Notes: generated from the sequence alone by a model not told the origin. DNA of 64,000 nucleotides from Candidatus Omnitrophota bacterium (GCA_041652815.1 JBAZGN010000005.1:8615-72614); one strand, 5' to 3'; shown: positions 23,552-60,418, counted from the first letter of the stretch. Program-made: numbers and translations.

Positions 23552-23662
23552 CACGTATTACGTAGCACGTTCATAAAATATTTCTTTGACGTGTTACCTC
23601 TACTTCAAGCGGACTCGCCTGAATATTTTTTATATTGTGGCGAGGTTACGTGATACCTGATA
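23552..23662. repeat. MITE/REP-like element with GTATCACGTAAC-type termini between carA and carB (inverted relative to the 50333-50461 copy)
   Basis: The reverse complement of 23589-23652 aligns at about 80% with 50345-50410. Shared core: CCTCGCCAC(A/C)ATATAAAAATATT(C/T)AGGCGAGTCC...GAGGTA(A/G)CACGTC. Confidence 0.6.
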
Positions 23663-23671
23663 CGCAATATT

Positions 23672-32526: not shown

Positions 32527-32588
32527 TTTTTACTCATTAGTCACTTTCCTTTATTTATCAGTCCCGATGTAACATCGGGACTGATAAA

Positions 32589-33482: not shown

Positions 33483-33486
33483 GCCT

Positions 33487-34428: not shown

Positions 34429-34442
34429 ACAAAGAAAATATT

Positions 34443-35207
34443 ATGGAAAACAATAAAACAAGAATTAAGGTAAGAGAGGTAAATTTTTATTATAATAAAA
34501 CCAAGGCATTAAAAAATATCGATTTAGATATTTACGAAAATAAGGTAACAGCGCTAATAGGGCCTTCGGGTTGCGGGAAATCTACGTTTATAAGGTTAAT
34601 CAACCGCATGAACGACCTTATAATACATAGCCGGTTTGAAGGAAATATTTACCTGGATGGAGAAGATGTTTACAGTCCGGCGATAGATGTGGCTGATTTA
34701 AGGCGGCGCGTGGGTATGGTATTTCAAAAACCTAATCCTTTCCCAAAAACAATTTTCCAGAATATAAGTTATGGTATGGAAGTCAACGGCATAAAAAACA
34801 AATTATTTATAAACAACCGGGTTGAAGAATCGCTTAAAAAAGCAGCTTTATGGGAAGAGGTAAAAGATAGATTAAACGATAGCGCTCTTAGGCTTTCCGG
34901 CGGGCAACAGCAGCGTTTGTGTATCGCGCGTGCGCTTTCGGTTGAACCGGAAGTAATTTTATTTGATGAGCCATGCGCAAGCTTAGATCCTGTTTCAACC
35001 AGAAAGATTGAAGAATTACTTCTTGAATTAAAAAAAGAGTATACGATAGTTATCGTTACACATAATATGCAGCAGGCGGCTCGGGTTTCCGATTATACCG
35101 CCTTTTTATATCTTGGAGAATTAATTGAGTTTGGAAGAACCGAAAAAATATTTACCGTTCCGAAAAGTAAAATGACCGAAGAGTACGTTACGGGAAAATT
35201 TGGATAA
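34443..35207 (+). CDS. pstB: Phosphate ABC transporter ATP-binding protein PstB (canonical motifs)
   Basis: Walker [10 protein letters not shown], signature LSGGQQQRL, Walker B ILFDEP, H-loop VTHN. I moved the start to the ATG at 34443 (RBS aaagaaaatattATG). Confidence 0.9.
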
Positions 35208-35226
35208 CAGCTATAAAGGAATACAA

Positions 35227-35652
35227 ATGGAAAAGAAAAAAGTATTATTCATATGCAAGCATAATTCTGCAAGGAGTCAAATGGCTGAAGGGTTGCTTAA
35301 AAATTTCTTTGGCGATTATTATGAAGTTTATAGTGCAGGTGCAGAACCGTCTACAGTTAATCCTTTTGCTATAAAGGCAATGGAAGAAATAGGCATAGAT
35401 ATATCAAGGCAACGCTCAAAAAGTATTAACGAGTTTATCGATTCGCAATTTGATTATGTGATTACGGTATGCGATTCCGCAGAGACTGCCTGCCCATTTT
35501 TCTCTAACAGCAGATACTATGTACATAAAAGTTTTAAGGATCCTTCGCAAATTTCCGGCTCTCACGCAAAAAAGCTGGAAGCTTTTCGTAATACCAGAGA
35601 CGAGATAAAACAATGGATGGAAAAATCATTTTTTAAGGAAATAGGTAAATGA
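35227..35652 (+). CDS. arsC: Thioredoxin-coupled arsenate reductase / LMW-PTP family (ArsC, three-Cys type) embedded in the pst operon
   Basis: CKHNSARSQMAEG P-loop (CX5R), downstream Cys pair TVCDSAETACP, and DP motif, as in B. subtilis ArsC. Lies between pstB and phoU. Confidence 0.75.
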   Translation: MEKKKVLFICKHNSARSQMAEGLLKNFFGDYYEVYSAGAEPSTVNPFAIKAMEEIGIDISRQRSKSINEFIDSQFDYVITVCDSAETACPFFSNSRYYVHKSFKDPSQISGSHAKKLEAFRNTRDEIKQWMEKSFFKEIGK

Positions 35653-35683
35653 TTCTAATCTTCTGGAAAAAAGGAGAAAAACA

Positions 35684-36352
35684 ATGGAAAGGCATTTTGA
35701 CGAGGAATTAAAAAAATTGAAAGAAAATATTATCACGATGTCTTTGATATCGCAAGATATGATTGAGGATGCAATTATTATGCTCAAGGAAAGAAAAAGT
35801 GAATTAAAAGAAAGCGTATTTGAGAAAGAAAGAAAACTTAATATGATACAGATAGAGATAGACAACATAGCTTTTAAACTTATCGTGCTTAGGCAACCGG
35901 CTGCGGGGGACTTGCGATTTCTTATATCAGCTATTAAGATTAATTCCGACCTGGAAAGGATTGGTGACCTTGCGGTAAATATAGTCGAACGTAACCAGGA
36001 ATTACTTAAAGAGCTGCCGTTAAAACCGCTGATAGGTATACCACGAATGGCAAAGATATCACAAAAGATGGTGCATGACGCTATAGATTCTTTTATTAAT
36101 AGAAAAGCGGAATTAGCGCAACAGGTGTGTTGTCAGGATGATATAGTAGATAACCTGAACGAGCAAATTTTCAGAGAGTTATTGACATATATGTTGCAGG
36201 ATACGAAAAACATAACTCGCGCAATAAGCCTTACATTTATTTCGAAATATCTCGAACGCATTGCCGATCATGCTACTAACATCGGTGAAGATGTATACTA
36301 TATGGTAGAAGGTAAAGATATCCGGCATCATAGCGATGACTATTGTAAATAA
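35684..36352 (+). CDS. phoU: Phosphate signalling regulator PhoU
   Basis: 222 aa. Two PhoU repeats with DLERIGD / ERIADHATNI metal-binding motifs. Confidence 0.9.
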   Translation: MERHFDEELKKLKENIITMSLISQDMIEDAIIMLKERKSELKESVFEKERKLNMIQIEIDNIAFKLIVLRQPAAGDLRFLISAIKINSDLERIGDLAVNIVERNQELLKELPLKPLIGIPRMAKISQKMVHDAIDSFINRKAELAQQVCCQDDIVDNLNEQIFRELLTYMLQDTKNITRAISLTFISKYLERIADHATNIGEDVYYMVEGKDIRHHSDDYCK

Positions 36353-36512
36353 GATATAACTATAAACTTTCCACTGAAATCTACTTGCCCGAAGTTTATC
36401 AAACAATCAAAGAGCTAATCTGGGTGATATTCTGATTTTACATAGATTTTACATAGATTTTACACTCACCTAACATACCTATCATAAAATACTTTATTAA
36501 AAGGAGGCAAAC

Positions 36513-37367
36513 ATGTTTAAGAGATGGTTATTTATTTTAGGAATAATTACTTTTGCAAACCCGCTATTCGCCGCGTCAAATAAAAATTCTATCCAAATCA
36601 AAGGTTCAGATACCATGGTCAATTTAGGCCAGGCGTGGGCTGAAAAGTACATGGAGAAAAATACCGCTGAATTTGTAGCAGTCACCGGCGGCGGTTCAGG
36701 CACTGGGCTTTCCAGTTTAATCAGCGCTACCTGCGATATTGCGATGAGTTCAAGAAATATCAAAGATAAAGAAATTTCCTTAGCTAAACAAAAAGGAATA
36801 AATCCTTACGAGATAAAAGTAGCTTTGGATGGTTTAGCCGTAGTGGTTAACCCCAAAAATCCTGTGAGCAAATTGACTATTGACCAGCTTGCTCAGATTT
36901 TTACCGGGAAGATTACTAATTGGAAGGAACTTGGCGGGCAAGATATGAAAATTGTTATTCTTTCGCGTGAGGTCAACTCAGGAACGCACGTTTATTTTAA
37001 AGAGCATGTGTTAAGAAGAGGCGACCCAAACGCGAAAGATGAATTTGCTCCGACTGCACTATTACTTTCTTCTTCTCAGGCAATCGCAGACGAGGTAGCG
37101 GGTAACTCTGCAGCAATAGGATATTACGGGATGGGATATATTTCGGCTAAACAAAAGCCCATTATGGTAGCTAAAGATGAGAAGGCTGCGTATGAAACAC
37201 CATCCATAGAAAATGTGGTTAATGGTAAGTATCCAATATCTCGGCCGCTATTCCTTTATACGAACGGAGAGCCAAAGGAGTTGGTAAAGAAATTTGTAGA
37301 TTTTTGTCTTTCCAAGGAAGGGCAAGATATTGTTCTAAAAACTGATTTTGTTCCCGTAAGCAAATAA
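36513..37367 (+). CDS. pstS: Phosphate ABC substrate-binding protein, second system
   Basis: GSDTMVNLGQAWAEKY, TGGGSGTGLSS, SSRNIKD, YPISRPLFLYTNG. Confidence 0.9.
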   Translation: MFKRWLFILGIITFANPLFAASNKNSIQIKGSDTMVNLGQAWAEKYMEKNTAEFVAVTGGGSGTGLSSLISATCDIAMSSRNIKDKEISLAKQKGINPYEIKVALDGLAVVVNPKNPVSKLTIDQLAQIFTGKITNWKELGGQDMKIVILSREVNSGTHVYFKEHVLRRGDPNAKDEFAPTALLLSSSQAIADEVAGNSAAIGYYGMGYISAKQKPIMVAKDEKAAYETPSIENVVNGKYPISRPLFLYTNGEPKELVKKFVDFCLSKEGQDIVLKTDFVPVSK

Positions 37368-37373
37368 ATTTCC

Positions 37374-38237
37374 ATGCGTAAAATTAAAGAGTTCATCATT
37401 GAGAAGCTAATCTTGATTTCAGGATTAGCTTCTATCTTTTTCGTTATTCTTATCTTTTTATTTCTCCTCAAGGAAGGATTCGCAGTATTTAAAATAGAAA
37501 GCCCGCTTAATTTTCTTTTCGGCAGAAGCTGGTATCCGATTTCAGAACCGCCTCAACTAGGGATATTGCCGTTGATTCTTGGTTCTTTGCTGGTTACCCT
37601 GGGGGCTGCGATAATTTCCATACCCATCGGAATAGGATGCGCGGTTTACATTGCCGAAATAGCCCCGGTTAAAATCAAAGAAATACTTAAGGCAGGTGTA
37701 GAGTTATTAGCGGCTATACCCAGTGTTGTTTTGGGTTTTGTAGGTATGGTAACGTTGGTGCCTTTGGTAAAGACAATTTTTCATTTGCCCACAGGCCTTA
37801 CCGCGCTGTCCGGTTCGATAATGCTGGCATTTATGGCTATGCCGACAATCGTTTCGATTGCCGAAGATGCTCTTTATTCAGTTCCAAAAAATTATAAAGA
37901 AGGTGCTCTCGCGCTAGGAGCAACCCATTGGCAAACCATTTGGCGAGTGATGCTTCCGGCAGCGTCCAGCGGGATACTTGCCGCGGTAATGTTGGGGATT
38001 GGCAGAGTAATAGGCGAGACAATGGCGGTTATGATGATTACTGGAAATGCCGCGGTGATTCCGCAGAGCATTTTGGTTCCGGTAAGAACCTTGACTGCAA
38101 CTATCGCGGCAGAAATGGGCGAGGCTGTAGTAGGGAGCGAGCATTATTTTGCTTTGTTCGCTATTGGCATAGTTTTATTTGTTATAAGCTTCGCAATTAA
38201 CGTAACCGCAGATTTATTTTTGCATAAGAAAGAATGA
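37374..38237 (+). CDS. pstC: PstC permease, second system
   Basis: EGALALGATHWQTIWRVMLPAASSGIL. Confidence 0.9.
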   Translation: MRKIKEFIIEKLILISGLASIFFVILIFLFLLKEGFAVFKIESPLNFLFGRSWYPISEPPQLGILPLILGSLLVTLGAAIISIPIGIGCAVYIAEIAPVKIKEILKAGVELLAAIPSVVLGFVGMVTLVPLVKTIFHLPTGLTALSGSIMLAFMAMPTIVSIAEDALYSVPKNYKEGALALGATHWQTIWRVMLPAASSGILAAVMLGIGRVIGETMAVMMITGNAAVIPQSILVPVRTLTATIAAEMGEAVVGSEHYFALFAIGIVLFVISFAINVTADLFLHKKE

Positions 38238-47776: not shown

Positions 47777-50128
47777 ATGCCAAAGAAGAAAAAGGAGAAA
47801 TCTAAAAAATTGGCGCAGCCCAAGGAATTGCAATACAGGGCACTTATTGAGAACCTTCCTCAAAAGATTTTCCTCAAAGATATAAATTCAATATATACAT
47901 CCTGTAATGAAAATTATGCCAGGGATTTAAGAATCAAAGCAGACGAAATTGTCGGTAAGACAGACTATGACTTTTTCCCGGAATATTTAGCAGAAAAATA
48001 CAGGGCTGCCGATAAGAGAGTTATGGAATCAGGGGAAACAGAGACGATGGAGGAGGAGTACATAGTAATCACTGATTTTACTAGCAAATTCGAAGAGAAG
48101 TTTATCAATACAGTGAAAGTTCCTGTTCGTGATGAAAGCGGAAAAGTCATAGGGGTATTAGGCATATTTTGGGATATCACTGAGCGTAAGAAAGCAGAAG
48201 ATGAAATACGCAATCTGAATAAGCAAGTAGAGTTCATACTTGGAGCTACAAAGACCGGCCTTGATATTATAGATTCCAATTTCAATTTGATGTATATCAA
48301 CCCGGAATGGCAAAAAGTTTATGGAGACCCGGAAAATAAAAAATGTTACCGGTATTTTATGGGCAGGAATAAAGAGTGCCCTGATTGCGGTGTCAGAAAA
48401 GCTTTCGAGACGAAAAAAGCTGTGATTACCGAAGAGATTTTGGTAAAAGAGGGAAACCGTGTTGTGCAGGTAACCAGCATTCCATTTCAGGATAGAAAAG
48501 GCGATTGGCTTGTAGCTGAAGTTAATGTCGATATTACCCAGCGCAAGCAGATGGAAGAAGAGCTGCTTTTAAGCGAAAAAAAGATTCGTGCTCTCTTCGA
48601 CCAGACTTTTCAGTTTATCGGCATGATGACGCCGGATGGGAGGCTAATTGAGGCGAATAAGACGGCTATGCAGTTTGCTGGAATCGCTGAAGTTGATTGC
48701 ATAGGCAAGTTTTTCTGGGACACGCCCTGGTGGGCTCATTCAAAAGAGATGCAAGGCAGGCTGCGTGAAGCTACGATAAAAGCGGCTGGTGGCCAATCGG
48801 AATTTTTTGAAGCAACCCACCTTGCTGCCGATAAAAGCATTCACTTTATAGATTTTTCGCTTAAACCAGTTAAAAATCGAGATGGAAAAGTTATATTTAT
48901 TATTCCTGAAGGGCGTGATATCACCGAGCACAAGCGGATTGAAGATGAATTGAAGAGATATCGTGAGCATTTGGAGGAGCTTGTTAAAGAAAAAACAGAG
49001 GCAATAGAGGAAAGTGAGAAAAAATTCAAGGCCATATTTGAAAATTCTAGAGACGGTATCCTCCTGGCGGATGCAAAGACTAAAAAATTTAGCTTGTGTA
49101 ACAAAATGATGACTAATATGTTAGGATATACCGAGGAAGAGATAAAAAATCTTAGCGTAAAAGATATTCATCCAGAGAAAGATCTGGCACGAATTGTGGA
49201 AATATTTGAAAAGCAGGTGCGGGGGGAGTTGATGACTGCAGATGGTTTGCCTGTAAAGAGGAAAGATGGCAGTATCTTTTATGCGGATATTACTACGTCA
49301 TTAATAACTTTATTCGGTGACAAAATACTCGTGGGTAGTTTCCATAATGTTACTGTGCGCAAGGAAGTTGAAGACATACTGAAACGTGACAAAGAAACAT
49401 TCGAAAGGCTTGTTCAAGAAAGAACAAAAGAACTGCTTGAGATACAGATGGAACTAGAGAGAACAAAGCGCCTTTCTGATATTGGAGTATTGGCGGCTAC
49501 TGTTGCGCATGAGCTTCGAAATCCCTTGGCTGTGATAGATATGGCTGTTTATAATATCAAGCGAGAAATAAAAACACCGGATATTGATAAATACATTGCA
49601 GATATCGAAAAAAAAATAAGGGAAAGCAATCAGATTATCAGCAACCTCCTTTTTTACTCGCGTTTAAAGCCGCCTCACTATGAAAATGTTAACATGTTTA
49701 ATATTATCGAGGAATCAATAGTCACCGTCAGAAACTACCTTAATAAGGGCGTATCGATAATTAAGAACATTAATTCGTTTGAGGGTATTTTTATAGAGGT
49801 TGACCCTATTCAAATTAAAGAAGTTTTTCATAATATATTAAATAATGCCTGCGACGAGGTTATGCCGGCGAAGGGACAAATAGAGATTATGGGTATATGT
49901 GAAGATGGATTTATCAGGGTTGTCTTTAAAGATAACGGACAGGGAATGGATAAGGAGACTTTAACAAAAATATTTGATCCATTTTTCACAACAAAAGCGA
50001 AAGGAATAGGCCTCGGGCTTACAGTCTGCCAGCAGATAGTTAATCTGCATCATGGTTCAATTTGTATTGAGAGCGAAGTTGGGAAAGGAACCACGGTTAT
50101 GATTTGCCTGCCAAAAAAGAAAAAATAA
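47777..50128 (+). CDS. Multi-PAS sensor histidine kinase (cytoplasmic)
   Basis: 783 aa. Several PAS/PAC repeats (FWDITERKKAEDE, GRDITEHKRIEDE), HisKA H-box AHELRNPLAVI, HATPase N/G boxes NNACDEV, DNGQGM, GIGLGLTVC. Confidence 0.85.
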   Translation: MPKKKKEKSKKLAQPKELQYRALIENLPQKIFLKDINSIYTSCNENYARDLRIKADEIVGKTDYDFFPEYLAEKYRAADKRVMESGETETMEEEYIVITDFTSKFEEKFINTVKVPVRDESGKVIGVLGIFWDITERKKAEDEIRNLNKQVEFILGATKTGLDIIDSNFNLMYINPEWQKVYGDPENKKCYRYFMGRNKECPDCGVRKAFETKKAVITEEILVKEGNRVVQVTSIPFQDRKGDWLVAEVNVDITQRKQMEEELLLSEKKIRALFDQTFQFIGMMTPDGRLIEANKTAMQFAGIAEVDCIGKFFWDTPWWAHSKEMQGRLREATIKAAGGQSEFFEATHLAADKSIHFIDFSLKPVKNRDGKVIFIIPEGRDITEHKRIEDELKRYREHLEELVKEKTEAIEESEKKFKAIFENSRDGILLADAKTKKFSLCNKMMTNMLGYTEEEIKNLSVKDIHPEKDLARIVEIFEKQVRGELMTADGLPVKRKDGSIFYADITTSLITLFGDKILVGSFHNVTVRKEVEDILKRDKETFERLVQERTKELLEIQMELERTKRLSDIGVLAATVAHELRNPLAVIDMAVYNIKREIKTPDIDKYIADIEKKIRESNQIISNLLFYSRLKPPHYENVNMFNIIEESIVTVRNYLNKGVSIIKNINSFEGIFIEVDPIQIKEVFHNILNNACDEVMPAKGQIEIMGICEDGFIRVVFKDNGQGMDKETLTKIFDPFFTTKAKGIGLGLTVCQQIVNLHHGSICIESEVGKGTTVMICLPKKKK

Positions 50129-50280
50129 ATATTTAATAATACGGTAATATCCGGCAGCATCATTTAGGTGCTTATATTTGGGGGAAGGTATAGTATCCTG
50201 ATTGGAAAAATCAATCAGGATTTTTGTTTTTAGATAGGTAAAGAGATTAATTGACACAATAAAAAAATATGCTAAGCTGT

Positions 50281-50298
50281 TATGAACATATGTTCATA
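50281..50298. promoter_or_regulatory. Perfect 18-bp palindrome TATGAACATATGTTCATA (candidate operator)
   Basis: Self-complementary. Lies about 190 nt upstream of the first gene of the arsenic cluster. Confidence 0.4.
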
Positions 50299-50332
50299 AC
50301 AAACGTTACCTATATCTTATCTTTTGAAATAT

Positions 50333-50461
50333 GTATCACATAACACGTATCCTCGCCACCATATAAAAATATTTAGGCGAGTCCACTTGGAGTGGAGGTA
50401 GCACGTCACGTAATCATTAGAGGATGAAAAAACATAATACCTGTTGCCTGCGACGTGATAC
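50333..50461. repeat. MITE/REP-like element with inverted termini GTATCAC(A/G)TAACACG ... CGACGTGATAC
   Basis: The core 50345-50410 is about 80% identical to the reverse complement of 23589-23652. Contains hairpins CTCGCC-loop-GGCGAG and CCACT-TGG-AGTGG. Confidence 0.55.
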
Positions 50462-50489
50462 TTAACCAATATGAGGTATATTAAAATTT

Positions 50490-50795
50490 ATGAGGCCTAA
50501 AAAAACAAGATGGGTTAAGTGCGAGCCTGGGGAGAGGTGTTTTAAGCCGGTATGTAAACCTTTAAACAGGCTTACGTGTGTGTGTTTAACTTTGGATGAG
50601 TTTGAAGCCATAAGATTAGCTGACCTTGAGGAGTTAAAGCAGATTGATGCGGCTAAAAAACTAAAAATATCGCGGCCGACATTCTCGAGGATTATATCGT
50701 CTGCACACAGCAAGATTGCTGATGGATTGGTTAATATCAAAGCCATTAGAATTGGCGGTGGTTGCTGCAAGATTGGCGGAAGGAGTAAGAAATGA
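50490..50795 (+). CDS. DUF134 (UPF0251) family putative DNA-binding protein, Cys-rich
   Basis: 101 aa. Central sigma-region-4-like HTH (LTLDEFEAIRLADLEELKQIDAAKKLKISRPTFSRII). N-terminal Cys cluster C11/C17/C22/C30/C32 and C-terminal GGGCC. First gene of the ars cluster. Confidence 0.6.
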   Translation: MRPKKTRWVKCEPGERCFKPVCKPLNRLTCVCLTLDEFEAIRLADLEELKQIDAAKKLKISRPTFSRIISSAHSKIADGLVNIKAIRIGGGCCKIGGRSKK

Positions 50796-51997
50796 AGGAG
50801 TGGAAAAAGTTTCTTTATATCTTAGCCATATTCTTAGGATGTTTTTATCTGCCGGTAGAGAATTTACGATTTACCCTGCTAGAAAATAATTTTCTAACGG
50901 GGTTTACCAATGCTATCCTTGAAGCTCTTGCTCTTGTTAAATGGTATGCCCGGGAGCATGTTATTTTGTGCCTTGTCCCGGCATTCTTTATCGCAGGAGC
51001 CATTTCGGTATTTGTCAGCCAGGCATCAGTCATAAAATATTTTGGCGCAAAAGCTAATAAATTTCTTTCATATGCTGTTGCTTCGATATCAGGAACTATC
51101 CTTGCCGTGTGTTCCTGTACGGTGCTCCCGTTATTTTCCGGTATATACAAACGCGGCGCAGGCCTGGGCCCCGCGATTGCTTTCCTATATTCCGGTCCTG
51201 CCATAAATATTTTGGCTGTTATTCTAACGGCACGTATTCTTGGCTGGCAATTGGGGTTGGCAAGAGCCATAGGTGCTATTATGTTTAGCGTTGTAATCGG
51301 CTTATTAATGCATCTCATTTTTTTAAAGGAAGAACGAGAACGTCATGCCACCGGTGATTTTAATGTAGGTGAGATAAAAGAAACCCGTTCTTTGGGTAAA
51401 ACAGTTCTATATTTTGCTTCAATGGTTGCGTTTCTTGTTTTTGCTAACTGGGGTAAACCCCTTGAAGGTGACTATGGGATATGGACTTTGGTGTATCAAT
51501 ATAAATGGTGGATAGCTGGTTTTTCATTTATCAGTTTACTGGTTATGATTTTTAAATGGTTCAAAAAGGATGAATTAAAGGAATGGACTTCTGCAACCTG
51601 GGGCTTTGCTTTACAAATCCTGCCGCTTTTATTGGGCGGCGTGCTCATTTCCGGATTTCTATTGGGCCGAGTTGGCCATGAGGGCGTTATTCCTTCCAGT
51701 TTTATAGAGGCACTTGTCGGAGGCAATTCTTTGCGGGCAAATTTCTTTTCTTCGATTGTTGCGGCGTTTATGTATTTCGCTACTCTTACTGAAGTGCCGA
51801 TTTTACAAGGATTAATTGGTTCAGGTATGGGCAAAGGTCCGGCGCTTGCGCTTCTTCTGGCCGGGCCCGCATTGAGTTTGCCTAGTATGCTTGTAATTAG
51901 AAGTGTCATTGGTACAAAAAAAACAGTTATATATGTTTCTTTGGTTGTTATCATGGCTACAGTTACGGGAATGATTTTTGGTTTTATTGCCGGTTAA
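50792..51997 (+). CDS. arsP: ArsP-like permease (DUF318 family)
   Basis: 401 aa polytopic. Conserved CSC motif in a TM segment (AVCSCTVLPLFSG), as in organoarsenical efflux permease ArsP. Confidence 0.65.
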   Translation: MKEWKKFLYILAIFLGCFYLPVENLRFTLLENNFLTGFTNAILEALALVKWYAREHVILCLVPAFFIAGAISVFVSQASVIKYFGAKANKFLSYAVASISGTILAVCSCTVLPLFSGIYKRGAGLGPAIAFLYSGPAINILAVILTARILGWQLGLARAIGAIMFSVVIGLLMHLIFLKEERERHATGDFNVGEIKETRSLGKTVLYFASMVAFLVFANWGKPLEGDYGIWTLVYQYKWWIAGFSFISLLVMIFKWFKKDELKEWTSATWGFALQILPLLLGGVLISGFLLGRVGHEGVIPSSFIEALVGGNSLRANFFSSIVAAFMYFATLTEVPILQGLIGSGMGKGPALALLLAGPALSLPSMLVIRSVIGTKKTVIYVSLVVIMATVTGMIFGFIAG

Positions 51998-52021
51998 GTT
52001 AAACGAAAAGGGAGTTATAAG

Positions 52022-52855
52022 ATGAAAAAAGATACAAAAAATATTAAAGACGTGGTTAAAAAAGGTTATGCCAAAATTGCAGTTAATGAAGTTTCGTGTT
52101 GTTCTGGAGGTTCGTGTTGTCCAGGCATAGCGCAAGCTAAAGATATAAGCAAGATTGTCGGTTATACTGATAAAGAAATGAATGTAGTTCCTGATGGTGC
52201 TAATTTAGGCCTTGGCTGTGGAAATCCTGTGGCTATCGTATCTTTGAAAGAAGGTGAGGTTGTGCTTGATCTGGGCAGCGGTGCTGGATTTGATGCTTTT
52301 CTTGCTTCCCCTAAAGTAGGCAAGACTGGACGTATTATTGGCGTTGATATGACTTCTGAAATGATTAAAAAAGCGCGTACGAATGCTAAAAAAGGAAACT
52401 ATACAAACGTTGAATTCAGGCTTGGCGAGATTGAAAAGCTTCCGGTTGAAAATAATTCAATTGATGTAATTATTTCAAACTGCGTGATCAATCTTTCTCC
52501 GGATAAAGAAAGTGTTTTTAGCGAAGCTTTTAGGGTTTTAAGGCCGGGCGGAAGGCTTATGGTTTCAGATCTTGTTTTGGTAAAGGAGCTGCCGGCAATT
52601 ATTAAAGATTCTGTTGAGGCTTATGTGGGCTGTCTTGCCGGAGCGATTATGAAGGATGAATACTTGGAATATATCAAGGAAGCCGGGTTTAAAAACGTAG
52701 ATGTTGTAAGCGAGACTAATTATCCTATTGAGGCGATGGCGAATGATATCACCGCACAGATTGTCAAAAGTAATCCCGGCATAAAACAGAAAGACCTGCA
52801 AGGCGTTGAAAGTTCAGTAGTAAGTATTAAGGTTAGTGCGTTAAAACCTAAATAA
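52022..52855 (+). CDS. arsM: Arsenite S-adenosylmethionine methyltransferase
   Basis: Near-colinear with ArsM as I recall it: LGLGCGNP, VLDLGSGAGFD, IGVDMTSEM, DVIISNCVINLSPDK, AFRVLRPGGR, VGCLAGA. N-terminal Cys pairs CCSGGSCC. Confidence 0.9.
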   Translation: MKKDTKNIKDVVKKGYAKIAVNEVSCCSGGSCCPGIAQAKDISKIVGYTDKEMNVVPDGANLGLGCGNPVAIVSLKEGEVVLDLGSGAGFDAFLASPKVGKTGRIIGVDMTSEMIKKARTNAKKGNYTNVEFRLGEIEKLPVENNSIDVIISNCVINLSPDKESVFSEAFRVLRPGGRLMVSDLVLVKELPAIIKDSVEAYVGCLAGAIMKDEYLEYIKEAGFKNVDVVSETNYPIEAMANDITAQIVKSNPGIKQKDLQGVESSVVSIKVSALKPK

Positions 52856-52868
52856 GAGGAAGGAAATT

Positions 52869-53102
52869 ATGAAAATTGAAATATTGGGAGTGGGCTGCTC
52901 TAAATGTAGGCAATTAACTGCAAACGCGGAAATGGCGCTTAAAGAGCTTAGTATTTGTGGGGACATTTCAAAAGTAACGGATATTGGAAAAATTACCGAA
53001 TACGGCGTGATGATGACACCGGCGCTTGCAATCGATGGCAAAGTGGTTTCTTCAGGCAAGGTATTGACGAAGGATGAGATAAAAAAATTAATAGCCGGAT
53101 AA
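52869..53102 (+). CDS. Small thioredoxin-fold protein (redox-active disulfide protein 2 family)
   Basis: 77 aa. CxxC as GCSKC near the N-terminus. Typical small Trx-like gene of anaerobe ars operons. Confidence 0.6.
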   Translation: MKIEILGVGCSKCRQLTANAEMALKELSICGDISKVTDIGKITEYGVMMTPALAIDGKVVSSGKVLTKDEIKKLIAG

Positions 53103-53112
53103 GGAGAGCTGT

Positions 53113-53529
53113 ATGCGCAAGAAAACATTGTTGGTTCTGTTTATGCTTGGATTCATCACAGTTTATTTTGCCGCCGATAAGCCATCAGATAGCAAAGTAA
53201 CAGCATATTATTTTCACGGAAACTATCGCTGTTCTACCTGTCGTAAACTTGAACAGTATTCCAAGGAAGCGATAGAATCAAATTTCAAAAACGAGCTTGC
53301 TTTGGGGAAATTGGCTTTTATTGCAGTTAATATTGATGAAAAAGGTAATGAACATTTCGTGAAAGATTACCAGCTTTATACAAAGTCCCTTGTATTGTCT
53401 TTGGTCAAAGATGGCAAAGAGATAAAATCAAAAAATCTTACTAAGATATGGGAGTATGTTCGTGATAAACAAAAATTCTTTGATTACATCAACGAAGAGG
53501 TAAATAATTTCTTAAAGGAAGCGCAATGA
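53113..53529 (+). CDS. Secreted thioredoxin-like protein (CxxC = CSTC), probable partner of CcdA
   Basis: 138 aa. Signal peptide plus YYFHGNYRCSTCRKLE. Overlaps ccdA by 4 nt. Confidence 0.5.
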   Translation: MRKKTLLVLFMLGFITVYFAADKPSDSKVTAYYFHGNYRCSTCRKLEQYSKEAIESNFKNELALGKLAFIAVNIDEKGNEHFVKDYQLYTKSLVLSLVKDGKEIKSKNLTKIWEYVRDKQKFFDYINEEVNNFLKEAQ

Positions 53530-54218
53530 CAGATATTTTGATTACTTTTGGCTCGGCATTATGGCTTGGGGTATTAACCTCAATAAGCCCTTGTCCTTTG
53601 GCTACCAACGTAGCAGCCATATCGTTCTTAGCAAAAAAGATAACTCATCCATTTTTTGTTTTACTCTCCGGAATCGCCTATACCGTGGGTAGAATGGCTA
53701 CCTATGCGATACTAGGATTTATACTCATCAATTCAATATTGAGCATCCCGCAGGTGGCGCAGTTTTTGCAAAAATATATGACCAAAGCCCTTGGGCCCAT
53801 TCTGATTGTTACGGGATTAATTTTACTTGATGTAATTAAGATAAACTTTACGGGATTATCGCTTTCCCAAAAGCATCACAGCAAACTTGTTGAAGCAGGT
53901 GTTCTGGGAGCATTTTTATTAGGAGCGATATTCGCTCTCGCGTTTTGTCCGGTATCAGCAGCTCTTTTCTTCGGCAGCCTCATTCCGTTTGCGCTTCAGT
54001 CTAAGTTTGGGGCAATACTACCTTTTATTTATGGAATCGGCACAGGGCTTCCGGTATTAATGTTTACTATCGCCATTGCCGCAGGCATTACTTCGTTAAG
54101 TCACTGGTTTCATAGGCTTGCAAAATTGGAATATTATATGCGAAAAGTTACTGGCGTTATTTTTATTCTTGTCGGTATTTATTACCTGGCATTAAATCTT
54201 TTGAAAGTTGGAGGTTAA
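53526..54218 (+). CDS. ccdA: CcdA/DsbD-family thiol-disulfide transporter membrane protein
   Basis: 230 aa, 6 TM. Conserved Cys in TM1 (SPCPLAT) and TM4 (AFCPVS). Confidence 0.8.
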
Positions 54219-54220
54219 TA

Positions 54221-55267
54221 ATGAAGGAAGCCATAACAAAAAAAATGTCTTTTTTTGATCGTTATCTTACTTTATGGATATTCTTGGCAATGGCAATTGG
54301 AGTCGTGTCCGGGTATCTCTATCCGCAGATTGTAAATTTTTGGAATCAATTCCAGGTTGGTACAACCAACATTCCTATCGCTATCGGCTTGATTCTAATG
54401 ATGTATCCGCCGCTGGCAAAAGTGAAATATGAAGAATTAGGCGATGTGTTTCGCGATTTTAGGGTCTTGGGATTATCTTTGGTTCAGAACTGGATTATAG
54501 GTCCGGTTTTGATGTTTTTATTAGCGATAGTTTTTTTACGCGGCTATCCCGAATATATGATTGGTCTGATTATGATTGGCCTGGCGCGATGCATTGCTAT
54601 GGTTATTGTTTGGAATGATTTAGCCCGAGGAGATACTGAATATTGTGCCGGCCTTGTTGCTTTTAATTCTATTTTTCAGGTATTATTCTACTCTGTTTAT
54701 GCTTGGGTGTTTATCACAATCTTGCCCGCCTGGTTCGGCCTAAAGGGGAAGACAGTTAATATTACAATGGTGCAAATAGCCCACAGCGTTTTTGTCTACT
54801 TAGGTATACCTTTTTTAGCTGGAATTATCACGCGCCTCGCCCTTATTAAAATAAAAAATAAAGAGTGGTATGAAAATAAATTTATCCCGGCAATAAGCCC
54901 GATAACCTTGATTGCCTTATTGTTTACTATCGTGGTAATGTTTTCGCTTAAGGGTGAGTATATCGTAAAAATTCCCTTGGATGTAATTCGTATTGCTATA
55001 CCGCTTCTGATTTATTTCATAGTGATGTTTTTGATTTCATTCTATATGGGAAAGAAGTTTAATGCCGGTTACGCTAAAACAGCAACGCTATCTTTTACCG
55101 CCGCAAGCAACAACTTCGAATTGGCGATTGCGGTTGCGGTAGCTGTATTCGGAATAAACTCCGGCGCAGCATTTGCCGCGGTTATTGGGCCTTTAGTTGA
55201 GGTTCCCGTTCTTATTGGTCTTGTAAATGTTTCGCTCTATTTTAAGAGGAAGTATTTCGATGGATAG
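54221..55267 (+). CDS. acr3: Arsenite efflux transporter ACR3 family
   Basis: 348 aa. [48 protein letters not shown]. Confidence 0.9.
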
Positions 55268-55679
55268 GAAGAAAGTTTTATTTATTTGCGTACATAATTC
55301 TGGCCGCAGCCAAATGGCTGAAGCGTTTTTAAAGCAAATGGCAGGGGACAGGTTTGAAGTAGAAAGCGCAGGGCTTGAGCCCGGTGCACTAAATCCTTTA
55401 ATTGTTGAAGTAATGAAAGAAATAGGCATAGATATTTCTCAAAATAAAACTAAAAGCGTTTTTGATTTTTACAGGCAAGGCAAACAATATGACTATGTAA
55501 TCACTGTTTGCGGCCAGTCGCAGGCTGCTAAATGCCCGGTTTTTCCCGGGGCTGTTCAACAGCTACACTGGGGATTTGATGACCCTTCGGCTTTTAAGGG
55601 AAGCTGGCAAGAGAAACTGGAAAAAACAAGACAAGTGAGAGATGAGATTAAGCAAAAGATTAAGGAATGGATAAAGTGA
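55260..55679 (+). CDS. arsC: Thioredoxin-coupled arsenate reductase (LMW-PTP type)
   Basis: [14 protein letters not shown]-loop, Cys pair [15 protein letters not shown] moved the start to the ATG at 55260 (MDRKK), overlapping the acr3 stop by 8 nt. Confidence 0.85.
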
Positions 55680-55727
55680 TTTTACGAATTTTCAAATAAG
55701 CCGATAAGCTGTCCTAAATGTTACTGC

Positions 55728-55755
55728 TTGATAAATATGAACAGTGTGGTATAAT
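55728..55755 (+). promoter_or_regulatory. Sigma-70-like promoter upstream of the DEAD-box helicase (TTGATA-16-TATAAT)
   Basis: Followed in the 5' UTR by a weak CCGTA...TACGG hairpin plus T7 run at 55782-55812. Confidence 0.4.
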
Positions 55756-55841
55756 TAATTAATTGGATTAGAATTCTTAAGCCGTAGAGGGAACTAGCCT
55801 TTACGGTTTTTTTCTTTAGCTAACTTTTGTTTAAAAATAAC

Positions 55842-57092
55842 ATGGATAAAAAACCTAATATAAACAATTTTCCTCAAGGAATTAATCAGCCAGAATCCGG
55901 TTTTTATGGTTTGGGTATTGCGCCTAAAATTTTAGATATACTTCAACGGATGAGATTTAAGGCGCCAACGCCGATACAAATGAAGGCTATACCTTTGGGT
56001 ATTCAAGGCAAAGATATTATCGGCGTAGCGCAAACAGGTACAGGGAAAACCCATTCATTTGCCATACCTATGGTGCAGAGGCTTGCTCAGGAAAAAGGAA
56101 CGGGTTTGGTGCTTGCGCCAACAAGGGAATTGGCTATCCAGATAGATGATGCATTTAGAATGCTCGCGCATGCTTTTGGTATGTATACAGTTTGTCTTAT
56201 CGGAGGTGCTCCAATGCAGCCTCAGATACAGAAACTGCGTAGAAATCCTCGTATTGTAATAGCCACTCCGGGAAGGCTTATTGACCATATATGGCAAGGC
56301 AATGCATCTGTGGATTATGTTTCAATGCTCGTTCTTGATGAAGCAGACCGCATGCTTGATATGGGATTTGCTCCACAAATTGAACAAATTTTACGTTTCC
56401 TGCCGCGTAACAGGCAAACGATGCTTTTTTCCGCAACTATTCCCAAAGAAATTATGGATATCACTTCCAAATATATGAAGCTTCCTGTTAGCGTAGAAAT
56501 TGCTCCTTCCGGAACTACTGCCGAGCGCGTTACCCAGGAAGTATTTATTGTAAGGCGCGAAGCTAAATTAACTCTTCTTAGCAGGATACTTGCTCAATAT
56601 CGCGGAGCAGTACTTTTATTCTCGCGCACCAAGCATAATGCCGGAAGAATTGTGAAGAGCATAAGGGATATGGGTTATAGAGCGGCTGAAATACACTCCG
56701 ACCGAAGCCTTGGCCAACGGCGCGAAGCGCTTGAAGGCTTTAAATCCGGTAAATATAAAGTGCTTGTTGCAACAGATATCGCGGCAAGAGGAATTGATGT
56801 AACCGGCATTGAGTTGGTTATCAATTTTGATTTACCTGACGATGCGCAAAATTATGTGCATCGTATCGGACGCACAGCGCGTGCCGGCCACCCCGGCCAT
56901 GCAATTTCTTTTGCAACACCTGACCAAGGCCAGGATGTGCATGCCATAGAGAAGCTTATAAGGGCGACACTCCCTATCTCAAAACACCCGCAAATTCCTT
57001 CGGAGCAATTTGTCCAAAGCCCTCCTAATCATCAAGCCCGCCACTTTAGGCGTGGTTTTGACCGTAACCGCCACAGGCCGCGCAAATTTTAG
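55842..57092 (+). CDS. DEAD-box ATP-dependent RNA helicase
   Basis: Q-motif region, Walker A AQTGTGKT, PTRELA, DEAD (VLDEAD), SAT, HRIGRTARAG. Basic R/H-rich tail. I prefer the ATG at 55842 to the track TTG at 55827. Confidence 0.9.
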   Translation: MDKKPNINNFPQGINQPESGFYGLGIAPKILDILQRMRFKAPTPIQMKAIPLGIQGKDIIGVAQTGTGKTHSFAIPMVQRLAQEKGTGLVLAPTRELAIQIDDAFRMLAHAFGMYTVCLIGGAPMQPQIQKLRRNPRIVIATPGRLIDHIWQGNASVDYVSMLVLDEADRMLDMGFAPQIEQILRFLPRNRQTMLFSATIPKEIMDITSKYMKLPVSVEIAPSGTTAERVTQEVFIVRREAKLTLLSRILAQYRGAVLLFSRTKHNAGRIVKSIRDMGYRAAEIHSDRSLGQRREALEGFKSGKYKVLVATDIAARGIDVTGIELVINFDLPDDAQNYVHRIGRTARAGHPGHAISFATPDQGQDVHAIEKLIRATLPISKHPQIPSEQFVQSPPNHQARHFRRGFDRNRHRPRKF

Positions 57093-57283: not shown

Positions 57284-60200
57284 ATGATTCCATTTCTTAT
57301 ATTACTTATGATCGGTGGCGTTGGTGCAGGGCTTTATGTGCTTTTATCTCCTTCTGGAGAAAAAGGTAAAGTTCCGGATATACAAAAAGAAGATTATGAA
57401 GCAACCATTAGAAGGCTTCAGGATAAAATAAGTTCTCTTAAGGAGAATGTTTCTTCGCTGAATACAAAACTAAAAAAAACCGATGAAAGTATAAAGAGCC
57501 TTGAAAAACAACTGCAGGCGCAGGAGAAAGAAAAAGCTGAGCTGGAAAAAATCATAGAGAAGCAGAAAAAATGGGAGGAATTAGGGACTAAAGATACGGG
57601 AAAAATAAAACAGCAGGCGATGGAATTTAAGGATAAGCTTCAGGAGAAAGAGAAAGAATTAGAGAAAAAGTTTTCAGAAAATGTAAAGCTGACGAGAGAA
57701 ATAAAAGAGTTAAGCGATAATATAGAGTCTCTTACTAAAAGCAATAACGAAAAAGAAGAGGAAATAAGAGTATTAAAATTTAAATTAAAGGATTATCTTT
57801 CGAAACTGCAGGAGCAGACAAAAACAACGCACGGTTTAAAAAGAAAGCTGGAGCAAAGCGATTGGGTAACGAAAGATGAGTACAAAGAGCTAAAAGGAAA
57901 CTTTGATTCGTTGGAGAAGGAAATAGAGGAGAAGAAAAAAATATTATTGGCCAAAGATGAGCGGCTTAACGAATTAGAAGCAAAAGTGCATCAATTAAAT
58001 GCTCAATTGACAGCTAAAGCAAAAGAAGTTCCGTCTAAGGATGCTTTACCTGAAGAAGGGGCTGATAAGAGTGTAGCAGGGCCTGCCGAGCAAGTTGAGC
58101 CGAAGCTTCTTGAGTCTACGCCTGAACCAAGTAAGGCTTTAGAGGCAACTTCTGAGAGCCTACCTACGCAACCGCAACCAGCGCTACAACCAGAAGCTGT
58201 TGAGGCGCCTCAGTTGGAAAATCCGATAAAGGAAGAAATCGAAACCAAGCCTAGCGAAGAAGCGCCGGTGGATTTGTCCGTTGAGCCAACACCAGAGCAA
58301 CCAGAAGAAAAAATAGATTTATCTGTAGACCTTAGCAAGGTAAGGAATATAGGTATTATGGCGCATATTGACGCCGGAAAAACCACACTTACGGAACGCC
58401 TGCTTTTTTATACAGGAAAGATCCACAAAGTTGGTGAAGTCCATGATGGTAAAGCAACTATGGATTGGATGAAGCAGGAACGCGAGCGCGGTATCACCAT
58501 AACTGCAGCTGCAACTACCTGTTTCTGGCTTGATACGCGAATCAATGTTATCGACACCCCGGGACACGTTGATTTTACCGCTGAGGTTGAACGAAGTCTG
58601 CGCGTCCTTGACGGTGCGGTTGTAGTGTTTTGCGCGGTTGGAGGAGTTGAAGCGCAGTCAGAAACTGTGTGGAGGCAATCCGATAAATACCATGTTTCAA
58701 AAATGGTATTTGTAAATAAAATGGACCGTCTCGGAGCTGATTTTTACAAGGTTCTGGGTGAAATAGAAGAAAAACTAGCAGCTAACGCAGTACCGGTAGA
58801 AATCCCTATCGGCGCGGAAGCTGAATTTAAAGGTGTGATTGATTTAATAGAAATGAAATCCTACATGTATGGTACGGACGAAGATGTGAAAAAAGTAGCT
58901 GCAGAGGATATACCTTCGGAGTATTTGGAAATTGCAAAAAAATGGCGGCATAATTTATTGGAGAAGGCTTGCTCTTTGGACGAATCCTTGGCGGATAAAT
59001 ATTTGAAAGATGAAAGTTCGGTAACCGAGGAAGAATTAAAATCAGCCATAAGAAAAGCTACTATTGCCAATAAAATTATTCCTATGCTTTGCGGCTCAGC
59101 GCTAAAAAATAAGGGGTTACAAAAGCTTCTGGATGGGGTAACATTTTATCTGCCTTCTCCGGTAGACCTTCCAGCGGTTATCGGGCATGACCCAAAGGAT
59201 AGCAGTAGCATAATTAAAGTTTCTCCTTCTGTGAATGAGCCTTTTGCCGCTCTTGCTTTTAAAATACAGTCAGACCCGCATGTTGGTAAGCTTGTATATT
59301 TCAGAGTATATTCTGGTTATCTTGCGGCTGGCTCATATATTTTAAACAGCACCAAAAATAAAAAAGAAAGAGTGGGAAGGCTTTTGCAAATGCACGCAAA
59401 TCAGAAAGAAAACAGAAGCTCTATTTGTGCGGGCGATATCGGCGCGGCAGTGGGCCTAGGTTCAACTGTAACCGGAGACACACTCTGCGCAGAAACACGC
59501 CCGGTAATCTTAGAAGCTATAGAATTTCCTGAGCCGGTAGTTTCCATAAGCATAAAACCAAAGACAAGGCAGGACCAGGATAGATTAGGCAAAGCCATAA
59601 TGAAACTTGTAGAAGAAGACCCGACTTTTGCTTTTGAAACCGATGAAGAGACGAATGAAATCCTTCTCTCGGGGATGGGAGAATTGCATTTGGAAATTAT
59701 GGTAGACAGATTAAAGGAGGAGTTTAATGTCCAGGCAGAAGTAAGCCCTCCTAAGGTTGCTTATAAAGAAACCATTCTAAAAGCAGTGACAGGTGAATAT
59801 AAACATATAAAGCAAACAGGAGGACATGGCCAGTATGGCCATGTAGTTATAGAATTTTCTCCTAACGAAAAAGGCAAAGGCTTTATTTTTGAGACTAAAA
59901 TAAAAGGCGGAGCAATACCGCAAAATTTTATACCTTCAATAGAAAAAGGCTTAAAGGAAGTTATGAAAAAAAGCGTATATGCGGGATATCCCGCCGTAGA
60001 TATAAAGGCAACATTGCTTGATGGTTCTTTCCACGAGGTTGATTCTTCGGATATAGCTTTCAGGCTTGCAGCCATGGGTTGTTTTAGGGAAACTTTTCCA
60101 AAGGCAGATCCCGTGCTCATTGAGCCTTATATGCGTATTGAGGTTCTGACCCCCGAAGAATATTTAAGCAGTATCGTGGGTTATATATGCTCTAAGAGAG

Positions 60201-60418
60201 GCAAGATTATAAATATAGAAGACAAAAGTAATCAAAAACTCGTCATATCAGAAGCTCCGCTTTCGGAAATGTTCGGCTATTCCCAGATTTTCCGCTCGCT
60301 TTCCAGCGGCCGCGCAACTTTTGCGATGGAATTTTCAAAATACGAGCCGCTCCCTTCGAACTTAGCAGAAAAAATTGTCGCAGAAAAAAAGAAAGAGAGA
60401 GAAGAACAGAACAAATAG
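57284..60418 (+). CDS. Membrane-anchored coiled-coil::EF-G fusion (N-terminal TM helix, ~230-aa coiled coil, Pro/Glu/Ala-rich linker, complete EF-G-like GTPase domains I-V)
   Basis: 1044 aa. [21 protein letters not shown] is a TM helix. Residues ~30-250 form heptad-rich K/E repeats. From ~345 on: [28 protein letters not shown], and the domain-IV loop GSFHEVDSS, diagnostic of EF-G-type translocases. Confidence 0.85.

Follow-up and report, generated by a model that had tools for sequence, protein, structure and literature searches.

The present analysis suggests that a regulator outside the ArsR/SmtB family governs the arsenic resistance operon of an uncultured bacterium of the Omnitrophota. 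Specifically, we consider it reasonably probable that the 101-aa DUF134/UPF0251 protein encoded by the first gene (50490–50795, + strand, in the 64,000-nt stretch of DNA analyzed here, the window) is an autoregulated repressor of the ars operon, released when As(III) or an organoarsenical binds its thiolates. Comparison across ~80 other genomes indicates binding to a conserved palindrome in its own promoter and makes it probable that the protein represents an arsenic sensor of a new type. A first-pass annotation of this DNA had already proposed that DUF134 senses arsenite in place of ArsR and acts through the palindrome. That proposal is supported by gene linkage and by what the computation shows of the operon structure, the conserved position of the operator, the coupling between operator and helix-turn-helix (HTH) sequence, and the clade-specific cysteines; dimeric binding, repression rather than activation, and, from cysteine gain and gene context, arsenic as the ligand are inferences.

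The operon (50251–55818) is compact and has a terminator at each end. All eight open reading frames lie on the + strand, at the coordinates of the first-pass annotation, in the order DUF134, arsP, arsM, arsE/F/G-like, acr3, arsC, and both this order and the earlier family assignments agree with the profile matches. On the 5′ side, a PAS histidine-kinase gene ends at 50128 and is closed by an intrinsic terminator (50195–50230, + strand; 11-bp stem ATCCTGATTGG...CAATCAGGAT, then a T-run), which forms the limit of the ars unit; on the 3′ side, a second intrinsic terminator (55779–55818, + strand; 12-bp stem, then a T-run) lies just before a DEAD-box helicase gene at 55827. The arsP start codon shares an ATGA with the DUF134 stop codon, which makes separate transcription of DUF134, a possibility raised in the first-pass annotation, unlikely, and the other intergenic gaps are at most 24 nt. 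On the basis of this overlap, the short gaps, and the flanking terminators, DUF134-arsP-arsM-arsEFG-acr3-arsC is one transcription unit. Since the base composition of the region is no different from that of its flanks, "operon" is a better term than the "arsenic island" used previously.

The genes downstream of DUF134, all on the + strand, encode an ArsP_1-family permease of the organoarsenical efflux type with a CxC motif (AVCSCT; 401 aa, 50792–51997; PF03773, 261 bits, E=1e-77), the As(III) S-adenosylmethionine methyltransferase ArsM (277 aa, 52022–52855; NCBIfam NF008823, 358 bits against a cutoff of 263), an ArsE-like small thioredoxin-fold protein with a CxxC motif (77 aa, 52869–53102; TIGR00412 [MTH895/ArsE], 100 bits against 62; PF13192), an ArsF-like protein with an N-terminal signal or anchor and a CxxC motif (138 aa, 53113–53529; NF040494, 113 bits against 60), an ArsG-like membrane protein of the DsbD_2/CcdA fold (230 aa, 53526–54218; NF040495, 276 bits against 200; PF13386), the arsenite efflux transporter Acr3 (348 aa, 54221–55267; TIGR00832, 466 bits against 283), and ArsC, an arsenate reductase probably of the thioredoxin-coupled LMWP type (55260–55679; PF01451, LMWPc domain). 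The three genes previously read as a small thioredoxin, a secreted CxxC protein, and ccdA, and as a thiol-disulfide relay, match the curated ArsE, ArsF, and ArsG families, all above cutoff. Reduction and efflux of nitroaromatic arsenicals is the biochemical activity of ArsE/ArsF/ArsG, predicted here by family match. ArsC scores 137 bits against TIGR02691, under the cutoff of 174, and its sequence contains the CX5R motif and two downstream cysteines. Its start is more likely at 55260, as in the 139-aa gene call on an identical contig, than at the alternative 55227 adopted earlier. Described ArsEFG operons are reportedly ArsR-controlled, whereas here the regulator slot is occupied by DUF134. Among known systems, the nearest to this gene set are ars operons that include thioredoxin/CcdA-like genes, together with the ArsEFG group (Chen, Zhang & Rosen 2019, cited in PMC10190100), in which ArsE, ArsF, and ArsG homologs likewise accompany ArsP, Acr3, and ArsC.

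A σ70-type promoter can be read at 50251–50278 (+ strand), with a −35 box TTGACA (50251–50256), a 16-nt spacer, and an extended −10 element TGcTAAGCT (50270–50278). Its −10 hexamer matches the consensus at three of six positions, and the promoter is absent from a simple promoter scan; its layout is kept in 79 ortholog upstream regions that, when aligned on the palindrome, read TTGACA-~17-TGnTAnAnT-(1–3 nt)-palindrome-SD-start. The predicted operator is a perfect 24-bp palindrome (TGTTATGAACATATGTTCATAACA, 50278–50301) composed of the fully complementary 12-nt arms TGTTATGAACAT and ATGTTCATAACA, within which lies the core ATGAACA-TA-TGTTCAT; the "perfect 18-bp palindrome" noted originally is therefore real but longer than was stated. 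A single match to the core pattern ATGNNCANNTGNNCAT is present in the 64 kb, against 0.05 expected. The operator begins on the last base of the −10 box and extends across the site at which transcription is expected to start. The palindrome is conserved upstream of ~80 of 86 DUF134 genes. Moreover, in 1.05 Mb of DUF134 loci all 51 strict operator matches fall 22–40 nt before a DUF134 start, one per locus.

In the window, the palindrome is 208 nt from the start codon, compared with ~33 nt in orthologs, a displacement of ~175 bp by a MITE-like intergenic repeat of ~155 bp (50312–50466, + strand, limits approximate), which gives a transcript leader of ~200 nt. Repeats of the GTATCACGTAACACGT type are found inside the element, as is an inverted repeat (50330–50339/50455–50464). 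The element recurs twice in the window: a second copy at 23587–23691, 80% identical over 105 nt, lies on the minus strand, and a partial one is at ~16530–16589. Its existence, noted in the first-pass annotation, is confirmed; it is located downstream of the palindrome and ahead of the DUF134 start codon, rather than upstream of both. Among the orthologous loci only this genome has a repeat in that position, and identical contigs from other samples carry the insertion with the same 362-nt intergenic gap. A weak promoter-like site within the element (50455–50482, 9 of 12 consensus positions) could bypass the operator.

The DUF134 protein matches PF02001 over residues 2–93 (75.7 bits, cutoff 27; E=4e-21) and has in common with its family (DUF134/UPF0251/COG1342) the HTH, the IEGG motif, and, near the N terminus, the motif RPxKxRxV...P....FKP. 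Elsewhere in the family, proteins often exceed it in length, carry different C-terminal modules, and have NifX/NifB-like gene neighbors, and we found no publication on the function of DUF134/UPF0251. In an AF2 model (pLDDT 83) the HTH helices span residues 35–46, 51–58, and 62–81, and the best Foldseek match is the operator-bound DNA-binding domain of DeoR (Bacillus subtilis DeoR, 7bhy_A, which leads the PDB matches with an rmsd of 0.6 Å over 40 residues and 40% identity). DeoR is also the closest match to the HTH by sequence (phmmer E=0.13; NCBIfam DeoR model E=2e-5 over residues 39–84, far under cutoff). DeoR, a SorC-family protein (PDB 7BHY/8R7Y), has the recognition helix ISRPTVSRLL, near-identical to ISRPTFSRII of DUF134, and in its solved complexes it occupies a palindromic operator with a TGAACA half-site, where R34 and R39 make base contacts with 5′-TTGAACA-3′ (PMC11229326). 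These arginines align to R62 and R67 of DUF134, both more than 90% conserved. DeoR, however, has ~310 aa, a sugar-phosphate-binding effector domain, and a tetrameric form on DNA, whereas DUF134 has 101 aa, no effector domain, and cysteine-bearing tails. Of the features of the SorC/DeoR family (~250–310 aa), the protein has the DeoR-type N-terminal HTH and lacks the C-terminal effector domain. Of regions 2 and 4 of ECF sigma-70 factors, it has just a region-4-like HTH (TIGR02937 E=3e-4, below cutoff) and lacks region 2, and its palindromic site is downstream of the −10 box.

Operator and HTH vary together. Half-site GAACA accompanies HTH sequence ISRPTFSRI, GCACA accompanies VHRSTISRI, and GCACC..GGTGC accompanies VSRSTFTRI, while non-ars paralogs pair ATT[G/A]GCA with SRQTFGNI. 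The alignment columns with the highest mutual information with operator class (50, 53, 54, 60, 61, 63, and 65) lie in or beside model helices 2 (51–58) and 3 (62–81). Only ~3–4 independent splits among lineages underlie this coupling, and part of it is therefore due to shared ancestry. Collectively, binding of DUF134 to the palindrome in its own promoter is well supported as a prediction.

Species-representative genomes, mostly Omnitrophota, were surveyed where the sequence extends far enough downstream; in 71 of these 76 a DUF134 ortholog directly precedes ars genes, as first gene of the cluster in the position of ArsR. The gene content that follows varies (ArsP alone, Acr3-ArsC, ArsC-MIP, ArsFG-Acr3, or the full set) and DUF134 is the constant. 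More distant relatives that bear the Cys-Cys (CC) pair precede ArsP-ArsE-ArsF-ArsG (P0121), a MIP channel (P0128), and Acr3 (P0122); no ars linkage was seen for the nearest relatives without the pair. A few orthologs head non-ars genes, namely a CDF transporter (L077), a ferredoxin (L076), and ArsP_1-TrxR-ZIP (L032/L033), and the range of effectors may accordingly exceed arsenic.

The absence of an ArsR/SmtB repressor, remarked on in the first-pass annotation, was borne out in the 64-kb window, where tblastn with four ArsR/SmtB/CadC queries returned nothing significant. Nor is DUF134 itself a member of that family: a Pfam search of the protein gave no HTH_5/HTH_20 winged-helix domain, and the Foldseek top 50 contained DeoR and sigma region 4, and no ArsR. 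It could be argued that DUF134 is an accessory DNA-binding protein transcribed along with the ars genes, such as a constitutive autoregulator, and that the arsenic response comes from an ArsR/SmtB protein encoded elsewhere in the genome, given that the window covers 64 kb of a ~198-kb contig and that 5 of 83 loci do have such homologs within ~10 kb. We judge this highly improbable: the other 78 loci have none within that distance, the DUF134-linked palindrome is the sole conserved operator-like element of the promoter in the 79 upstream regions, and a clade-specific gain of cysteines would be left without explanation.

Together with gene context, that gain is what points to arsenic. The protein has exactly seven cysteines (C11, C17, C22, C30, C32, C92, and C93), as counted in the first-pass annotation, which arranged them in N- and C-terminal clusters; just five are conserved, and C30 and C32 are not in the set. 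C11, C17, C22, C92, and C93 are 86–92% conserved within the ars-linked clade, whereas other DUF134 proteins have at these positions a variable residue (Cys in only 20%), Tyr, Gly (81%), Asn, and Val. In the ars clade, Cys stands in place of the family's Y17 and G22, and the GG motif is followed by a CC pair. In a neighbor-joining tree the CC-bearing sequences form essentially one clade, and by these comparisons the five cysteines are clade-specific gains. The cysteine-bearing segments are modeled with low confidence (pLDDT ~71 for residues 1–20 and ~56 for 91–100). All five cysteines are kept in 59 of 81 orthologs; any single N-terminal one can be lost, and among the cysteine features the CC pair varies least.

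The same cysteines admit two other readings. They might not bind arsenic at all, and instead form a structural Zn or Fe-S center or a general thiol/redox switch, with a repressor that answers thiol-reactive or oxidative stress or other soft metals. Five cysteines spaced as C-x5-C-x4-C...CC could serve as ligands for Zn or an Fe-S cluster, DUF134 proteins outside the clade adjoin NifX/NifB-like cofactor-binding proteins, and CDF, ZIP, thioredoxin-reductase, or ferredoxin genes follow some orthologs. This is nonetheless quite improbable, in that the cysteine set is confined to the ars-linked clade, N-terminal cysteines that are individually dispensable are more in keeping with a flexible As(III) site of three thiolates than with a Zn or Fe-S site of four fixed ligands, and the genes controlled are arsenic-specific in 71 of 76 loci. 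Alternatively, within the same architecture, the effector might be a trivalent organoarsenical (methylarsenite or reduced aromatic arsenicals), bound mainly at C92–C93, rather than inorganic arsenite. ArsR proteins with two cysteines that are selective for MAs(III) offer a parallel, the one from Shewanella putrefaciens using a vicinal pair, and in our data the CC pair is the feature retained while each N-terminal cysteine is dispensable. ArsP_1 is, moreover, the commonest first gene after DUF134 (60 of 71 loci) and forms the core of these loci, followed by ArsE/F/G, organoarsenical-related families, with Acr3, ArsC, and ArsM as accessories. However, several orthologs with the same cysteine set head just Acr3-ArsC, ArsC-MIP, or ArsC, classic inorganic arsenic genes, and the five cysteines retained in most orthologs go beyond the need of a two-thiolate site, which makes an organoarsenical effector in place of arsenite rather unlikely.

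In the favored model, in which DUF134 is a repressor released by trivalent arsenic of either kind, a DUF134 dimer would bind ATGAACA-TA-TGTTCAT through its DeoR/sigma-region-4-like HTH and, with the palindrome adjoining the −10 box and covering the transcription start, would block RNA polymerase. Trivalent arsenic would then be captured by the near-invariant C92–C93 pair together with one or two of C11, C17, and C22, the arsenic-bound protein would be distorted or released, and DUF134-arsP-arsM-arsEFG-acr3-arsC would be derepressed as a single transcript. The As(III) repressors of the ArsR family are likewise small, operon-leading, autoregulated proteins with a palindromic promoter operator (autoregulation being predicted for DUF134), they follow the logic of derepression upon metalloid binding that is predicted here, and they have a cysteine cluster with a vicinal pair, of the kind used in S3 As(III) coordination, to which the DUF134 set appears comparable. 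In contrast, family and fold are unrelated, DUF134 having a DeoR/sigma-region-4-type three-helix HTH with its cysteines in N- and C-terminal tails.

We also lean, if only slightly, toward a broader proposal, namely that the DUF134 family as a whole consists of small repressors that control their own genes, with a DeoR-like HTH that binds TTAT-NNNCA-TA-TGNNN-ATAA-type palindromes beside their own promoters, and that one branch, mainly in Omnitrophota, gained a thiolate switch for As(III) or organoarsenicals and took over from ArsR in ars operons. If this is true, no earlier prokaryotic repressor that senses arsenic would lie outside the ArsR/SmtB family, DUF134 being the first, and the DUF134/UPF0251 family would gain its first functional assignment.

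The arsenic resistance genes of the window lie in eight ORFs on one strand, spanning 50490 to 55679, with intergenic gaps of no more than 24 nt and three overlapping gene pairs; the DUF134 stop codon overlaps the arsP start codon (ATGA). The products are a DUF134 protein (PF02001, E = 4e-21), an ArsP_1 permease (PF03773), ArsM (NF008823, score above cutoff), ArsE-, ArsF-, and ArsG-family proteins that each exceed their NCBIfam cutoff, Acr3 (TIGR00832, score above cutoff), and an LMWP-type ArsC, which scores below the equivalog cutoff and in which the catalytic cysteine pattern is visible. Terminator-like hairpins (50195–50221 and 55779–55809) flank the unit, with a PAS histidine kinase gene on its 5′ side and a DEAD-box helicase gene on its 3′ side. 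Farther along, at 57284–60418, is a gene for a 1044-aa EF-G-like GTPase with an N-terminal extension of ~345 residues, Lys/Glu-rich (coiled-coil-like) and Pro-rich, which is unusual for a translation-factor homolog. The first-pass annotation had called the ars unit an arsenic island. The ars gene set is indeed present. The GC content (0.35–0.42) is that of the flanks and no mobility genes are adjacent, and an ordinary chromosomal operon is favored over an island acquired by transfer. The same annotation saw no ArsR gene, and tblastn searches of the 64-kb window with ArsR, SmtB, CadC, and Bacillus subtilis ArsR as queries likewise gave no credible ArsR/SmtB homolog.

In one scan, 185,579 species-representative genomes yielded 280 relatives. 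The best 80 loci were kept, mainly from Omnitrophota, with a few from Auribacterota, Thermodesulfovibrionia, and Marinamargulisbacteria or labelled Planctomycetia; neighboring ORFs were annotated by BLASTP against the window proteins and, where unmatched, with Pfam. The linkage count was restricted to the 76 loci in which the sequence continues for 700 nt or more downstream of DUF134; in 71 of them, a chain of ars-type genes directly follows DUF134, in keeping with the earlier suggestion that DUF134 occupies the ArsR position. The gene immediately following encodes an ArsP_1 permease (60 loci), Acr3 (5), ArsF (3), ArsC (2), or ArsM (1), and the architectures comprise ArsP alone, ArsP–ArsEFG with or without Acr3, ArsM, or ArsC, Acr3–ArsC, ArsC–MIP, and ArsFG–Acr3. 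DUF134 is constant while the ars architectures vary, as would be expected for a dedicated regulator. Only 5 of 83 loci have an ArsR/SmtB homolog within about 10 kb. A nucleotidyltransferase gene is inserted before ArsEFG in one surveyed locus (L029), the sequence of another (L022) is too short to judge linkage, and the true exceptions are L076, L077, and L083, where DUF134 is followed by a ferredoxin gene, a CDF transporter gene, and an unknown gene, respectively. More distant DUF134 relatives that carry the Cys pair corresponding to C92–C93 of the 101-aa window protein (the CC pair) have ArsP–ArsE–ArsF–ArsG (P0121), a MIP channel (P0128), or Acr3 (P0122) downstream, and the closest relatives lacking the pair do not head ars-type genes. 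In L077 (9995–11476), a Cys-bearing ortholog precedes the CDF cation-efflux protein; in L032 (10001–13195) and L033 (1186–5413), it is followed by an ArsP_1 permease, a thioredoxin-reductase-like protein, and a ZIP transporter, with an extra unannotated 345-aa ORF between permease and reductase in L033. The effector or cargo range of the Cys-bearing orthologs may therefore be wider than arsenic. L061 (3601–4244) has tandem DUF134 genes before arsP, the second of which has HY in place of CC and no operator of its own.

The 18-bp palindrome first reported upstream of DUF134 is real and forms the central part of a perfect 24-mer (50278–50301). The 24-mer overlaps by one base the 3′ end of an extended −10 box (TGcTAAGCT, 50270–50278), with a −35 box (TTGACA, 50251–50256) 16 nt 5′ of the −10 hexamer, and the window has a single occurrence of the core pattern, where 0.05 would be expected. 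A palindrome of the form ATG[A/C]ACA-NN-TGT[T/G]CAT is found at about 80 of the 86 DUF134 genes in the surveyed loci. When 79 upstream regions were anchored on it, they shared the order TTGACA, ~17 nt, TGnTAnAnT, 1–3 nt, palindrome, Shine–Dalgarno sequence, and start codon. Moreover, strict matching across 1.05 Mb of locus sequence gave 51 sites, every one of them 22–40 nt before a DUF134 start and one per locus. Judged by this conservation, the palindrome is the predicted operator of DUF134, and since it would cover the transcription start, its placement argues for repression and against activation. A larger regulon reached through second operator copies was considered and rejected, as no further copies were found in the window or within 10 kb on either side in the 80 loci. 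The window also holds, at 31708–38237, a pstS–pstC–pstA–pstB cluster followed by an arsC paralog, phoU, and a second pstS–pstC set. This second LMWP-type arsC (35200–35652, 150 aa) makes sense within a pst operon because Pst is the entry route of arsenate; no DUF134-type operator was found ahead of the cluster.

The window is the only locus surveyed in which the palindrome lies 208 nt from the start codon, and most of the ~190 nt between the two is taken up by a repeated intergenic element (50312–50466), which is therefore a lineage-specific insertion; the insertion is also present in identical contigs from other samples. The proposed MITE-like element is borne out as a repeat by a second copy on the minus strand (23587–23691, 80% identity) and a partial copy at ~16530–16589. 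The element is about 105–155 bp long and MITE/REP-like, with internal repeats of the GTATCACGTAACACGT type. A structured RNA or riboswitch in the ~190-nt leader was rejected in favor of this inserted element: an Rfam E-value scan of 49900–56000 yielded a single chance-level match, within acr3, and no RNA family in the leader, the fold of which is no better than that of shuffled sequence (z = −1.86). Within 50463–50495, AACCAATATGAGG (50463–50475) resembles the start-codon context of the ortholog in L004 (AACCAAATATGAGG), and ATGAGG is repeated 19 nt downstream at the real DUF134 start codon (50490). The repetition at 50471–50495 could reflect a short, 19-nt duplication or a scar left by the element insertion.

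The variation among operators is mirrored in the protein. The alignment columns with the highest mutual information with operator class (50, 63, 65, 61, 32, 53, 60, and 54) all lie, except for 32, within or beside helices 2 and 3 of the AF2 model (pLDDT 83, pTM 0.73; helices at residues 35–46, 51–58, and 62–81). Specifically, half-site GAACA is paired with recognition helix ISRPTFSRI, GCACA with VHRSTISRI, and GCACC..GGTGC with VSRSTFTRI. The covariation comprises only ~3–4 independent splits, with a contribution from shared ancestry, but its localization to the HTH is specific. No solved DUF134 structure was found by sequence search of the PDB, where the only sequence match, and also the best Foldseek match, was the operator-bound DNA-binding domain of B. 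subtilis DeoR (7bhy), whose helix reads ISRPTVSRLL. In DeoR complexes, R34 and R39 make base-specific contacts to the 5′-TTGAACA-3′ of a palindrome (PMC11229326). These residues align with R62 and R67 of DUF134, both >90% conserved in the clade, and homology predicts a near-identical helix paired with a near-identical half-site, which lends independent structural support to binding of the palindrome by DUF134. Five paralogs that are not linked to ars genes and lack the Cys set (L017 4498–4971, L014 12951–13424, L078 12229–12552, L080 14411–14824, and L081 4362–4736, the last on the minus strand) extend the comparison. In four of the five, a palindrome of their own lies ~38 nt upstream, TTATT[G/A]GCATATGC[C/T]AATAA, its half-site ATT[G/A]GCA being paired with helix SRQTFGNI, and the L080 paralog has a different one, TGTGCATATGCACA, which suggests that autoregulation through a palindrome is a general property of DUF134 proteins. 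The L017 and L014 paralogs (157 aa, with a Zn-ribbon-like tail) share their genomes with ars-linked orthologs and have NifX/NifB-like neighbors; a NifX/NifB-like gene (121–127 aa) lies directly or one gene downstream in L017, L014, and L078. That the window protein binds DNA and autoregulates its operon is, on this evidence, highly probable.

How such a repressor would sense its ligand is suggested by its cysteines. Five of the seven (C11, C17, C22, C92, and C93) show 86–92% conservation across the ars-linked clade. In a set of 150 diverse DUF134 representatives, only 20% have C at position 11, which is variable, and the predominant residues at positions 17, 22, 92, and 93 are Y, G (81%), N, and V, respectively. 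Sequences bearing the CC pair form essentially one clade in an NJ tree. The five cysteines are complete in 59 of 81 orthologs, the CC pair being near-invariant and a single N-terminal Cys losable, a pattern that would suit As(III) binding at a flexible site of three thiolates or organoarsenical binding at a site of two; the Cys-bearing tails are low-confidence segments of the AF2 model. As(III) sites have arisen several separate times inside the ArsR/SmtB fold, and we take the Cys set of the DUF134 clade to resemble those independently evolved sites. The proposal in the first-pass annotation that DUF134 is a non-ArsR arsenite sensor acting on the palindrome is supported by linkage, operator, HTH coupling, and cysteines, with the arsenic step, in which trivalent arsenic is the direct effector via the Cys set, the less secure part and only somewhat favored.

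To our knowledge, all characterized repressors of bacterial and archaeal ars operons belong to the ArsR/SmtB family. DUF134 would resemble ArsR in being encoded by the first gene of its operon, in autoregulation, in a promoter operator, and in Cys-based metalloid sensing, but it has no winged-helix domain, adopts another fold, and is not a member of that family. The window protein is instead a member of DUF134/UPF0251. Its HTH is homologous to that of SorC regulators of the DeoR subclass and similar to σ70 region 4, and the other domains of DeoR-type regulators and of σ-factors are lacking. One of the oldest Pfam families of unknown function, DUF134 (COG1342) occurs commonly in anaerobes and archaea. 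NCBIfam holds just a "hypothetical protein" model for it, below whose cutoff the window protein scores, and in full-text literature outside subscription journals we found no functional study of DUF134, UPF0251, COG1342, PF02001, or IPR002852 and no link between DUF134 and arsenic resistance, the one paper matching both being an unrelated study of iron deficiency. Thiolate-switch repressors of ars operons are already known as a kind of system; what is new is the protein family that would carry out this role. If this is true, then arsenic biosensors would gain a compact part of 101 aa together with its defined operator of 16–24 bp, and the operator/recognition-helix variant pairs could provide a ready-to-use specificity code. 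In a phylum widespread in groundwater and sediment, regulated ars operons would go unnoticed in surveys that rely on arsR as a marker. The DUF134 family gains a concrete, testable function and a DNA target, and a second, unrelated scaffold acting as an arsenic sensor would extend the convergent-evolution view of metalloid sensing.
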